64,000 bases of DNA from Escherichia phage YW01. The DNA lies in sequence record PV018828. One strand, given 5' to 3'. The translations under genes and the position numbers were made by a program. Position 1 is the stretch's first letter; each line of letters opens with the position of its first letter. Under the pieces are notes generated by a model. It was given only the letters and a program-made list of their open reading frames with translations. It searched no databases and was not told the origin of the DNA. Positions 41,649 to 43,758 of the stretch are shown one piece after another.

Positions 41649-43679
41649 TTAACCTCTATTCAATGAACATTTAGGAGAATTACAATAAACTTGATTCATA
41701 GAACCAAGCGTACAACTTTCAGCATCGCGCCACGGAATCTGCTTAAAACACTCTGAGCAGTACCCGAGGGTCGACCACATTGCTTTGGTGAAGTCAGTGC
41801 TTCGATTTCCATCAAAGCTGACGACAGTTTTGCGGAGAGCTGTTCGTGATTCAGGAAACACACCTGCTTTCTCAGCAGGTTCCTCCTTTTTTGGCTTAGT
41901 TGAGATTGCAAAAATACTGTTGCTACGTTTCTCAACATAAGCATCAACAACATCCTCCAGAGTGATGCCTGTCTGTTTCGCTGAGGAAGGTGATACAGTC
42001 ATACGACCGATCATTTCTTCAGTTACACGTAAAGCAAACTCAGGACGACGGGCGTTTGTTGTATCTGTTGCTTTAATCCATACATAACCATCTTTGATCG
42101 TAGCATTAGATACTTTCTTCTTTACTTCTACAGCGCAGACTTTACAGATATCTTCACCACGAAGACGACTAAGTTCGTCATCGAACTCATTCTCTGTTTT
42201 AACTTCACCGCAGATTTCACAAACACCAATAGGAGTTTCCTCCTCTTCTTCCTCTTTAGGTTTAGTCAAACCTTCCAGACATTCAGGATGCCAATAGCAC
42301 TGATATGCGAAGACTGCTTTAGGTGCATCCTTCCAATCAATGTGCTTATCACAACCACCACAATCACCATGAGAGTGTGCTTCCCAGAATTTACGAGTGA
42401 TAGTAACACCATTCTTGTTGACGAAACTATCATTCATATCAAAAGGGATATCATTATCGAAGTCAGCAGTAGTTGACTCAGGCTCCTTTTTCTCCAGAGA
42501 TGGGTCAACAAAACGACCTGCTGTGATCACTAAACGGACCATAGCATTGACTTCGGAGATGCAAGATACTGTCCCACGGTAAACAATTTTAGGGTCTTTC
42601 AGGGCATCCTGATAAGCCTTAATGTCTACGTTATGAACATCACCTTCAATGTACTCTTGAGACTTCTCATCGTAGATATAACCAATCATCTTACCACGAG
42701 AAGGAACAGCACCAGCAGTTGCATAAGGAACAAACTCATGCGGAGTGATTTCCACAGTCATATCGCGGCGAATATCAATGTTTCGATCGCTTGCGATTTT
42801 GTTTTGACTTACCACTGCGTTTCTTCGACGAACGTCTGCCGCTGTCACTCCCGGCTTCGTGTCGTAAGGATTGCTTGTATTGCTTTTTGAGGAACTTTGA
42901 TAGTTGCTTTGGCTGTAGTTGTTCGAGTAGTAACTGGCCCAACGATTGACTACCGTAAAAACCGGAAGCTCGTGGGCGACCTCTTCAACCAGTGTCATGC
43001 TGTTGTTTGACATGTCAAAGATATACTCTGTACCAACTTTGCATTCAAAATGCTCATCAATACGGTTCTTGTGAGATCTAGAACGCTTCAGAATCCACAT
43101 CAACATATCTTCTTCAGAAGCACCAAACCAATCTCGGTTACAACGTGCGAGGTGGAATGGACGCTCTTCGTTACGGATGATATGAAGACGGTTATCAGAA
43201 GCATCATGCCAGATTAAGGTGAAAGCACCATCCAGCTTTTGAATAGTCTCTGCTGCACCAATAGTGTTAATAGAGTGGCAGATGTTCTCACTGTCTACCT
43301 CGAAGTTTTTGCTGTCAGGTAACAGATCTTGGTCCATCAAGGTTCCGTTATGAACCAGAGTGATGTTACCATGTTGGAAAGGATGGGCGTTCTTGGCGTT
43401 AACTGCACCTTTCGTTGCATGACGGCTGTGACCAACAATCCATGAAGGCGCTACAGTGTAAGATGTTTCACCAGTGGTGTGCTTCTTGTACTCATCTTGT
43501 AGGATGAATGCGAAAGAAGGAAGAGCTTCTTTATAAGTGAAGACTTCCTTAGTGCTTTTACGCTGACCAAAGATACCAGAGGAGTGTTGCCCTCGGAACA
43601 CTCCAGCATAAAAGAGTTGGTTAAATACGTCTAAATCAGTGCTTGACAGATTACCGCCAGCTAATACGATGCCACAAAT
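41649..43679 (-). CDS. class-II (Ntn) glutamine amidotransferase domain fused to Cys-rich C-terminal region; start non-canonical
   Basis: Frame open to 43682; encodes (K)I-CGIVLAGG..VFRGQHSSGIF..GHSRHATKGAVNAKNAHPF..ITLVHNGTL matching the PurF-type N-terminal nucleophile domain; catalytic Cys codon at 43676-43674 lies upstream of the ORF-track GTG start. Confidence 0.65.
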   Translation of the reverse strand: MCGIVLAGGNLSSTDLDVFNQLFYAGVFRGQHSSGIFGQRKSTKEVFTYKEALPSFAFILQDEYKKHTTGETSYTVAPSWIVGHSRHATKGAVNAKNAHPFQHGNITLVHNGTLMDQDLLPDSKNFEVDSENICHSINTIGAAETIQKLDGAFTLIWHDASDNRLHIIRNEERPFHLARCNRDWFGASEEDMLMWILKRSRSHKNRIDEHFECKVGTEYIFDMSNNSMTLVEEVAHELPVFTVVNRWASYYSNNYSQSNYQSSSKSNTSNPYDTKPGVTAADVRRRNAVVSQNKIASDRNIDIRRDMTVEITPHEFVPYATAGAVPSRGKMIGYIYDEKSQEYIEGDVHNVDIKAYQDALKDPKIVYRGTVSCISEVNAMVRLVITAGRFVDPSLEKKEPESTTADFDNDIPFDMNDSFVNKNGVTITRKFWEAHSHGDCGGCDKHIDWKDAPKAVFAYQCYWHPECLEGLTKPKEEEEEETPIGVCEICGEVKTENEFDDELSRLRGEDICKVCAVEVKKKVSNATIKDGYVWIKATDTTNARRPEFALRVTEEMIGRMTVSPSSAKQTGITLEDVVDAYVEKRSNSIFAISTKPKKEEPAEKAGVFPESRTALRKTVVSFDGNRSTDFTKAMWSTLGYCSECFKQIPWRDAESCTLGSMNQVYCNSPKCSLNRG

Positions 43680-43758
43680 TTTCTAATCCACCTGAAGGGT
43701 AAACCCTTTCATCTAATTAACCTTTAAATTGTGCCCCTTTGTCAGAGGCGCCCATTGA

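Follow-up and report, generated by a model that had tools for sequence, protein, structure and literature searches.

Probable AUU initiation of a phage glutamine amidotransferase gene beside a conserved hairpin and Shine-Dalgarno sequence

The amidotransferase locus in phage YW01

The window analyzed here is a 64,000-nucleotide stretch of DNA from Escherichia phage YW01 (sequence record PV018828). Its minus strand carries a gene for a glutamine amidotransferase that probably starts with the non-canonical codon AUU. A preliminary description of the window had placed the codon of the catalytic cysteine upstream of any canonical start and left five options side by side: initiation at AUU, coupling to a short upstream open reading frame (uORF), a cleaved leader, stop-codon recoding, and a sequencing error. 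Our analysis favors the first, grants the uORF an auxiliary role at most, and finds no support for the other three. The gene and the features of its start region, including the Shine-Dalgarno (SD) sequence, are as follows (nt, nucleotides; CDS, coding sequence).

41649..43679, minus strand: glutamine amidotransferase gene, homolog of phiEco32 gp83 and SU10_085; 676 codons from ATT to TGA, ~76.2 kDa; length and start equal those of the CDS annotated in phiEco32 and SU10
43677..43679, minus strand: ATT, proposed initiation codon AUU, which initiator tRNA would read; identical in 96/96 relatives, ATG in sister phages, annotated start in phiEco32 and SU10
43674..43676, minus strand: TGT, codon of the catalytic N-terminal nucleophile Cys (predicted mature Cys1); opposite GlmS Cys1 in a global alignment and invariant in alignments A2 and A3
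43680..43687, minus strand: A/U-rich 8-nt spacer ATTAGAAA from the SD sequence to AUU, including the in-frame TAG at 43685-83; read from the sequence
43688..43693, minus strand: SD sequence AGGTGG (AGGNGG; one mismatch to AGGAGG), 8 nt 5' of ATT; duplex with the 16S 3' tail, -5.9 kcal/mol
43693..43711, minus strand: hairpin UGAA(A)GGG-UUUA-CCCUUCA, directly 5' of the SD sequence; RNAfold, -6.1 kcal/mol
43683..43712, minus strand: 9-codon uORF MKGFTLQVD*, from ATG 43712 to TAG 43685-83, ending 3 nt before AUU; read from the sequence
43672..43724, minus strand: invariant 53-nt block made up of the leader, ATT, and TGTGG; 100% identity in 96/96 Escherichia/Shigella phage records
43599..43601, minus strand: GTG, start in the open reading frame (ORF) track, equal to the Val27 codon; GTA, GTT, or GTC in relatives

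Re-reading the minus strand from 43720 to 43660 (TTAATTAG ATG AAA GGG TTT ACC CTT CAG GTG GAT TAG AAA ATT TGT GGC ATC GTA TTA GCT GGC GGT) confirmed every coordinate given earlier for the uORF, TAG, AAA, ATT, TGT, and AGGTGG. The TAG at 43685-83 closes the amidotransferase frame two codons 5' of ATT, and ATG, GTG, and TTG are absent between this TAG and the Cys codon, so that the lack of a canonical in-frame start before the cysteine is verified. The peptide CGIVLAGG is encoded from TGT 43676-74 onward. The program-made ORF list opens a 650-residue frame at GTG 43601; as the preliminary description pointed out, a start there removes the Cys block, and the loss amounts to 26 residues including the cysteine.

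The core stem of the hairpin pairs AAGGG (43708-04) with CCCTT (43699-95), and its last paired base lies 13 nt from AUU. Within the 64-kb window, position 43679 is the sole site that combines an AUH codon, an SD sequence, a hairpin, and a long ORF without a nearby canonical start. The arrangement, invariant in 96/96 related genomes, is well beyond what chance would give. The 53-nt leader had no BLAST match in 5,426 E. coli genomes and was therefore not copied from a host leader.

A catalytic cysteine that fixes the start codon

Class-II, or N-terminal nucleophile (Ntn), glutamine amidotransferases need a free N-terminal cysteine as nucleophile, and this cysteine is residue 1 of the mature chain. 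The N-terminal ~230 residues of the phage protein form such a domain, with Pfam matches above cut-off to GATase_6 (55 bits, cut-off 27) and GATase_7 (27.4 bits, cut-off 25). A search of the PDB with the single sequence returned no match, and a profile search matched GlmS, PurF, and AsnB at E = 1e-6 to 1e-3. The hhalign comparison with the GlmS N-domain reached 94.6% probability and covered the rest of the domain, including the Asp, but stopped short of the N-terminus; Cys1 was matched by global alignment instead. There, CGIV of the phage protein stands opposite CGIV of E. coli GlmS (Cys1), FRG opposite YRG (Arg26-Gly27), LVHNG opposite VVHNG (the Asn98-Gly99 oxyanion hole), and EVDSE opposite SETDTE (Asp123), with NAHP also aligned. 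R28, G29, N110, G111, and D128 are invariant in alignment A2. By these alignments, the Cys encoded at 43676-74 is the Ntn nucleophile, the equivalent of GlmS Cys1.

Because the cysteine must be residue 1 of the mature chain, the start codon of the gene is fixed in place. It cannot move to a nearby canonical codon, and therefore a non-canonical start that would pass unnoticed in most genes is visible here. The N-terminal tryptic peptide expected from the AUU start (Cys1-Gly-Ile-Val and onward) is CGIVLAGGNLSSTDLDVFNQLFYAGVFR.

Conservation of the initiation region

The 53-nt block is preserved where its surroundings are not. In phages SU7 and Bas89, with amidotransferases only 83-85% identical to that of the window, all 53 positions are identical, and adjacent 100-nt bins fall to 52-87%. 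In Aeromonas phage BUCT695 (Grimontviridae), with a protein 52% identical, 44/46 positions of the block are identical against 24-67% in the flanks. BUCT695 keeps the order uORF-TAG-AAA-ATT-TGT; one of its two substitutions changes the hairpin loop, leaving the stem intact, and the other changes SD position 4 (AGGTGG to AGGCGG). The string GGATTAGAAA-ATT is found in BUCT695 and in four homologous loci, L096, L101, L165, and L177 (loci are cited by number), and the SD position reads AGGAGG in L096, L101, and L165. Compared with the window, the L096 hairpin carries a compensatory A-U to G-C change. More broadly, the sequence GG(A/U/C)GGAUUAGAAA-AUU-UGU is common to the phiEco32-like phages, BUCT695, the marine Zobellviridae phage L096, L101, L165, and L177, and the proteins encoded behind it are only ~30-50% identical. 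A search for the exact motif GGATTAGAAAATTTGYGG gave one chance match (L100) and one real new case (L101). The initiation region is unchanged in all phiEco32-like phages, and many unrelated lineages of the family have it too, with hairpins of other sequence.

An ATG directly precedes the Cys codon in Proteus phage Privateer, Cronobacter phage GAP52, Salmonella phage SE131, Aeromonas phage LAh_6, and Pseudomonas phage LUZ24, where the N-terminus reads MCGIV or MCGLV. By alignment, the ATT of the window is homologous to the ATG of these sister lineages.

The start itself has been on record for some time. The amidotransferase CDS runs for 2031 nt from this ATT in the phiEco32 GenBank record (EU330206, 2008), in its RefSeq copy, and in the SU10 record, so that the ATT start of the gene is already in the databases. 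No discussion of it was found in the literature searched, a search that did not extend to the original phiEco32 paper (Savalia et al. 2008). Both AUU initiation as a phenomenon and the ATT start of this gene are therefore known. Initiation at AUU, as one of the five earlier options, gains from all of these observations: the codon is conserved, it corresponds to ATG in sister phages, an SD sequence stands at the right distance, and two records annotate the CDS from it.

Start codons across the amidotransferase family

Homologous loci were gathered from IMG/VR, JGI/ENA metagenomes, GTDB genomes, and GenBank phages; in each, the Cys codon was located and the preceding codon was read. The census was drawn from the best 80 matches per scan (GenBank phage homologs number ~330 in all). 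The metagenome scan used alignment A4, the 16-sequence alignment A3 being too diverse. Lineages were defined as protein clusters at 60% identity (n=120). The codons before the cysteine in 186 distinct leaders were distributed as follows.

AUG: 130
AUU/AUC: 36
UUG: 13
GUG: 7

AUU or AUC is found in 26/120 lineages, and 12 of those 26 hold AUG members too; L093 (ATT), for instance, is 96% identical to L089-91 (ATG). In 32 of the 36 AUU/AUC leaders, an in-frame stop lies 0-14 codons upstream with no canonical start in between. In the AUU leaders L098, L204, L212, and L213, an in-frame ATG, GTG, or TTG lies 12-25 codons upstream, and these four could, from their sequences, be PurF-like propeptide forms and not AUU starts. 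Three of them belong to a class of leaders with GGAGAUUUUAUU-AUU, in which the hairpin is 18-23 nt away. That about a fifth of the lineages in this family of phage enzymes use AUU/AUC appears to be new. The family is essentially phage-borne, since a scan of GTDB genome contigs returned only 7 loci.

Among bacterial start codons, GUG usually ranks second in frequency. In this family it is unusually rare (7/186 leaders, against 36 with AUU/AUC and 13 with UUG).

A hairpin, a strong Shine-Dalgarno sequence, and fixed spacing

In a first sample of leaders, a hairpin of 5-7 base pairs that ends 13-15 nt before the start, against the SD sequence, was present in 10-11 of 12 AUU/AUC leaders and in 1 of 53 AUG leaders. 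The association was noticed in this sample and then tested with a fixed criterion in a second and a third. The comparisons are listed below, with values for AUU/AUC leaders given before those for the comparison leaders.

Abutting hairpin, independent metagenome sample, fixed criterion: 4/8; comparison 0/46
Abutting hairpin, third sample, fixed criterion (weak replication): 6/16; comparison 7/48; p = 0.07
Abutting hairpin, pooled: 23/36 (64%); AUG 13/130 (10%), AUG+GUG 13/137; p = 7e-11 (versus AUG+GUG)
Abutting hairpin, pooled per lineage: 16/26; comparison 12/103; p = 5e-7
Abutting hairpin, intergenic gap of at least 30 nt: 10/12; comparison 3/30; p = 1e-5
Abutting hairpin, intergenic gap below 30 nt: 7/8; comparison 7/72; p = 8e-6
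Median SD duplex energy: -8.3 kcal/mol; comparison -6.6 kcal/mol; p = 1e-4
SD-to-start spacing of exactly 7 nt: 69%; AUG+GUG 26%; p = 2e-6

In the metagenome sample, two of the AUU/AUC leaders scored as lacking the hairpin do have one of 4 base pairs at the same place. The third sample contains the GGAGAUUUUAUU-AUU class, with its more distant hairpin, as well as some leaders without a hairpin. Stem sequences differ between lineages (AAGGG/CCCTT, AGGGGT/ACCCCT, TCAAGCT/AGCTTGA, GTAGCC/GGCTAC, and others); because they all differ, it is the hairpin structure that is maintained. The statistical tie of AUU/AUC with a strong SD sequence, 7-nt spacing, and an SD-abutting hairpin appears to be new.

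An abutting hairpin is also present in 4 of 13 UUG leaders, against 13 of 137 AUG+GUG leaders (p = 0.04); the module may accompany weak start codons generally and not AUU specifically. Among GUG leaders the count is 0 of 7. The UUG-start homologs L187, L189, and L254 have an initiation region of the GAGGAUAG type together with an abutting hairpin, as in the AUU/AUC leaders.

Proposed initiation mechanism

We think it likely, from the sequence comparisons above, that translation genuinely begins at AUU 43679 within a dedicated region of hairpin, SD sequence, spacer, and AUU, and that the resulting fMet-Cys (fMet, formylmethionine) is processed to Cys1. The initiation region would consist of a short hairpin at the 5' edge of the SD sequence, the SD sequence itself, an A/U-rich spacer of 7-8 nt, and AUU. 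Initiator fMet-tRNA would decode AUU 43679, positioned by AGGUGG 8 nt upstream. The nascent fMet-Cys-Gly-Ile-Val would then be deformylated and lose its Met, leaving Cys1 with a free alpha-amino group. Most likely, the weak AUU is offset or tuned by three features acting with it: the strong SD sequence, the constant spacing, and the hairpin. The expected outcome is modest translation that would be sensitive to initiation factor 3 (IF3), as at E. coli infC.

A further claim, which we put forward tentatively and at somewhat less than even odds, is that the hairpin, SD sequence, 7-nt spacer, and AUU/AUC form a dedicated initiation device, not a tolerated defect. In such a device, the small helix would act with the strong SD sequence and the fixed spacing to make AUU workable and tunable by IF3; the helix perhaps stacks on the SD/anti-SD duplex or docks on the 30S platform. 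If so, phages have kept or re-invented it at least 16 times for one enzyme with an immovable N-terminus, and the Ntn amidotransferase family would be a natural reporter of the rules for non-canonical bacterial initiation, beyond infC. This single enzyme family offers dozens of natural AUU/AUC examples with matched AUG controls, and the usability of weak start codons becomes testable with simple reporters. The complete conservation of the 53-nt leader suggests that the dose or timing of the enzyme matters for the pathway of amidoligase, ATP-grasp, and amidotransferase (GATase) proteins encoded at the locus.

Several observations weigh against the proposed mechanism. The SD sequence of the window is imperfect (-5.9 kcal/mol), and AUU yields 4-8 fold less than AUG in reporters (PMC3592434). 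The hairpin replicated weakly in the third sample, and 13 of the 36 AUU/AUC leaders lack an abutting hairpin, which is therefore not obligatory. Predicted accessibility of the SD sequence and start does not differ between AUU/AUC and other leaders, and so gives no account of what the hairpin does; in a published standby-site model, the effect of short hairpins is roughly neutral. Folded as a whole, the 116-nt intergenic region has ordinary stability (z = -0.62), and the local hairpin alone is informative there. If phages pass the leader among themselves as a module, the lineages of the census may not be fully independent. The uORF stops 3 nt 5' of AUU and could deliver some or most of the ribosomes. 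Lastly, the protein has been detected in cells infected with SU10 (9 peptides, 23.7% coverage; PMC4281155), but that proteomic search was blind to the N-terminus because its model began at ATG 43337: the expected mass of 63.8 kDa for CDS85 (PMC4281155, Table 2) corresponds to the model from this ATG (562 residues, 63.7 kDa), unlike the deposited SU10 CDS, which starts at ATT (676 residues).

Relation to known systems

To our knowledge, very few bacterial AUU starts are documented, infC and pcnB being the known cases. The E. coli thrS-infC junction reads TTGGAGGAATAAGGT before its ATT, and the window reads GGTGGATTAGAAA before its own. Both place the SD sequence at -13 to -8 and the stop of an upstream ORF at -6 to -4, with a 3-nt gap to AUU: GGAGGA-A-UAA-GGU-AUU in infC and GGUGGA-U-UAG-AAA-AUU in the window, with GGAGGA also in L096, L101, and L165. 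The phage family uses both AUU and AUC, as has been reported for infC genes. The infC gene is regulated by its own product, IF3, which discriminates against AUU and AUC; a comparable logic is not apparent for an amidotransferase. The upstream ORF of infC is a full gene, thrS, in contrast to the 9-codon mini-ORF of the window and to the sister leaders, which have none. In addition, the infC hairpin ends ~21 nt from AUU, and those of the phages end 13-15 nt from it. In reporters of the thrS-infC junction, expression from AUU is roughly one quarter of that from AUG and about double that of a monocistronic AUU construct; reinitiation and de novo initiation have nearly equal shares in it (PMC3592434).

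The E. coli pcnB gene, for poly(A) polymerase I, is annotated from ATT in MG1655 and shares the AUU start with the amidotransferase gene. It lacks a strong hairpin by the SD sequence (-1.3 kcal/mol) and an upstream stop 3 nt away. Its AUU is described as holding down translation of the polymerase, an excess of which is harmful (Binns and Masters 2002, as cited in PMC3592434). Since the infC hairpin lies ~21 nt upstream and pcnB has none, the abutting hairpin is a variant feature of the phage genes.

At the protein level, the closest known systems are GlmS, PurF, and AsnB, which share the Met-Cys-Gly-Ile-Val N-terminus and the Arg-Gly, NAHP, VHNG, and Asp motifs. In these enzymes, Cys1 is exposed by removal of Met, and E. 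coli glmS begins ATG-TGT-GGA. The cellular class-II enzymes use AUG and the phage gene AUU. The phage protein also differs from GlmS, PurF, and AsnB in a ~23-residue insertion in the N-domain and in a C-terminal region of ~440 residues that replaces a known synthase domain.

Alternative explanations

The rival account that survives best, which we nevertheless consider unlikely, makes termination-reinitiation the main route. The 9-codon uORF would be translated, and ribosomes stopping at UAG 43685-83 would be held by the SD sequence inside the uORF and restart at AUU, de novo 30S binding being minor. The uORF ends exactly 3 nt before AUU, its own AUG is preceded 8 nt upstream by a weak SD-like AAAGG, and the succession of stop, 3-nt gap, and AUU repeats the thrS-infC layout, in which reinitiation supplies about half of expression. 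BUCT695 keeps the uORF as MKGLTLQAD* (two substitutions relative to the window, too few for a ratio of nonsynonymous to synonymous change, dN/dS), and in L165, L177, L040, L044, and L105 a genuine upstream gene ends at the UAG inside the initiation region. However, the GGAGGAUUAGAAA-AUU initiation region also occurs in L096 and L101, where there is no uORF, and upstream ORFs that end nearby are not enriched (9/20 AUU/AUC leaders against 65/102 other leaders). Two bases of the uORF AUG, its U and its G, pair within the conserved hairpin stem, and BUCT695 has no AAAGG upstream of the uORF AUG. Coupling after the uORF, as raised in the preliminary description, is thus tenable as a contributor but fails as a general feature. 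The uORF itself probably arises incidentally from the hairpin and SD sequence, and to judge from its position it may add to expression through reinitiation.

Rather less probable is a translational operator, in which the hairpin and adjacent SD sequence would bind a protein of phage or host origin, perhaps the amidotransferase itself or a partner ligase, and the weak AUU would be easily repressed, as in the case of T4 gp43. The DNA polymerases of T4 and RB69 repress their own mRNA through a hairpin and a sequence overlapping the ribosome-binding site (PMC3014915); the T4/RB69 gene 43 operator and the window both have a short hairpin upstream of the ribosome-binding site of a phage enzyme gene. 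Invariance of the whole 53-nt block in 96 genomes, including loop bases and synonymous sites, exceeds the need of a simple stem. Yet T4 gene 43 has an AUG start and a conserved loop that is bound by the gene product, whereas hairpin sequences in the family of the window are lineage-specific. With stems and loops completely different between lineages, a generic structural role fits better than a specific protein site. Pfam detected no RNA-binding domain in the neighboring genes, and an Rfam search of 43500-43900 at E ≤ 10 gave chance-level matches only and no family.

Read-through of the UAG, which we regard as very improbable, would fuse the uORF to the amidotransferase (MKGFTLQVD-X-KI-C…), and the 12-residue propeptide would be removed autocatalytically in the manner of Bacillus subtilis PurF. 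Propeptides of 11-12 residues are known in some PurF enzymes, the uORF shares its frame with the amidotransferase gene, and the four AUU leaders with an in-frame canonical start 12-25 codons upstream could be read in this way. Efficient UAG suppression in wild-type hosts would, however, be required, and the SD sequence is placed for AUU, not for the uORF AUG. L096 has UAG-AAA-AUU without an upstream AUG, and 32/36 AUU/AUC leaders have an in-frame stop 0-14 codons before the start and lack a canonical start after it. The window, BUCT695, L096, L101, L165, and L177 have the UAG in frame; L040, L044, L047, and L105 have it out of frame. Two of the earlier options likewise lack support: a cleaved leader, for which the in-frame upstream start is absent both here and in those 32 leaders, and stop-codon recoding, since in other AUU leaders the UAG either lies out of frame or ends an upstream gene. 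Frameshifting by -1 at A-AAA-UUU was also rejected, the heptamer not being canonical and the SD spacing fitting AUU and not the out-of-frame AUGs in L070 and L088.

Hardly credible is a protein that starts at GTG 43601 or further downstream without the catalytic Cys, the CGIVLAGG stretch being a decaying remnant or a sequencing error: this GTG is the only canonical start found by gene callers, and 44 of 54 annotated records among the Escherichia/Shigella phage matches listed have no CDS over ATT, but the codon is GTA in phiEco32, SU10, and NJ01, GTT in SU7, and GTC in ECBP2, which marks it, on sequence grounds, as a synonymous Val variant and not a conserved start; the first 60 codons of the gene in phiEco32, SU10, and NJ01 are free of in-frame ATG, GTG, and TTG; the 26 codons upstream of it are conserved as protein and variable at synonymous sites; and 96/96 independent, identical genomes exclude a sequencing error. 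The case that the preliminary description had named as refuting, a start at this GTG, is undermined by the same codon changes.

Genomic context, annotation, and expression

The window belongs to a Kuravirus (Gordonclarkvirinae): in this region its identity to phiEco32-like coliphages is 96-98.6%. The neighboring genes correspond to the phiEco32 gp80-gp87 cluster, namely a COOH-NH2 ligase, a hypothetical gene, an Amidoligase_2 protein, the GATase, two small ORFs, and an ATP-grasp enzyme, with the same gene content in the window as in the phiEco32-type cluster. One proposal for the phiEco32-type cluster of amidoligase, ATP-grasp, and GATase genes is that its products synthesize or alter a peptide-like metabolite or else the cell wall (Iyer et al. 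2009, as cited in PMC10580990). Two further features lie on the 5' side of the start region.

43759..44862, minus strand: upstream amidoligase gene (Amidoligase_2, homolog of phiEco32 gp84), with its stop TAA at 43761-59, 79 nt before AUU; from the ORF list, Pfam, and comparison with phiEco32
43731..43751, minus strand: first intergenic hairpin GCCUCU-GACAA-AGGGGC, terminator-like, followed by AATTTAAAGG; from the fold, with a terminator annotated under the region in the WFI101126 record

Public models of the amidotransferase are truncated by 10-114 residues and lack the catalytic Cys in most genomes of this phage group. Gene callers limited to ATG, GTG, and TTG always truncate the gene, and Cys1 provides a simple rule for correction. 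The SU7 model starts at codon 11, an ATG, and loses the cysteine (L004:434); models in two marine Zobellviridae genomes (L096:316 and L098:373) start 4 and 23 codons 3' of ATT, with the same loss.

The gene belongs to the early class, and the mapped early promoters of SU10 lie 16-19 kb upstream. The S2 table for SU10 lists no promoter or terminator in the gp85-86 gap, a scan of the coding strand of the leader for sigma-70 promoters and terminators found nothing, and the phiEco32 gp36 promoter element tAATGTAtA was not found in the leader of the window. A motif that resembles this element, AATGTAA(A/T), occurs 20-30 nt 5' of the amidotransferase start in BUCT695 (L015:2990-3003), GAP52, Privateer, and two IMG/VR relatives (loci L015, L007, L006, L021, and L023, the first being BUCT695). 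The matching stretch of the window is degenerate (AAAGGTTAAT). The paper on phage 7-11 reports that no gp36-type motifs were found in 7-11 or GAP52 (PMC8948821). The hairpin at 43731-43751 may, by its sequence, act as a partial terminator and leave less mRNA for the amidotransferase than for the upstream ligase genes. At the corresponding place, GAP52, SE131, LAh_6, and Privateer have a G+C hairpin followed by TTTAAA.

The C-terminal ~440 residues of the amidotransferase have no Pfam match. In this part of the protein (41649-42980, minus strand), Cys pairs in C-G-G-C-D-K-H, C-E-I-C-G…C-K-V-C, and C-S-E-C-F…C-N-S-P-K-C resemble zinc ribbons, and the same part contains the acidic linker KEEEEEE.

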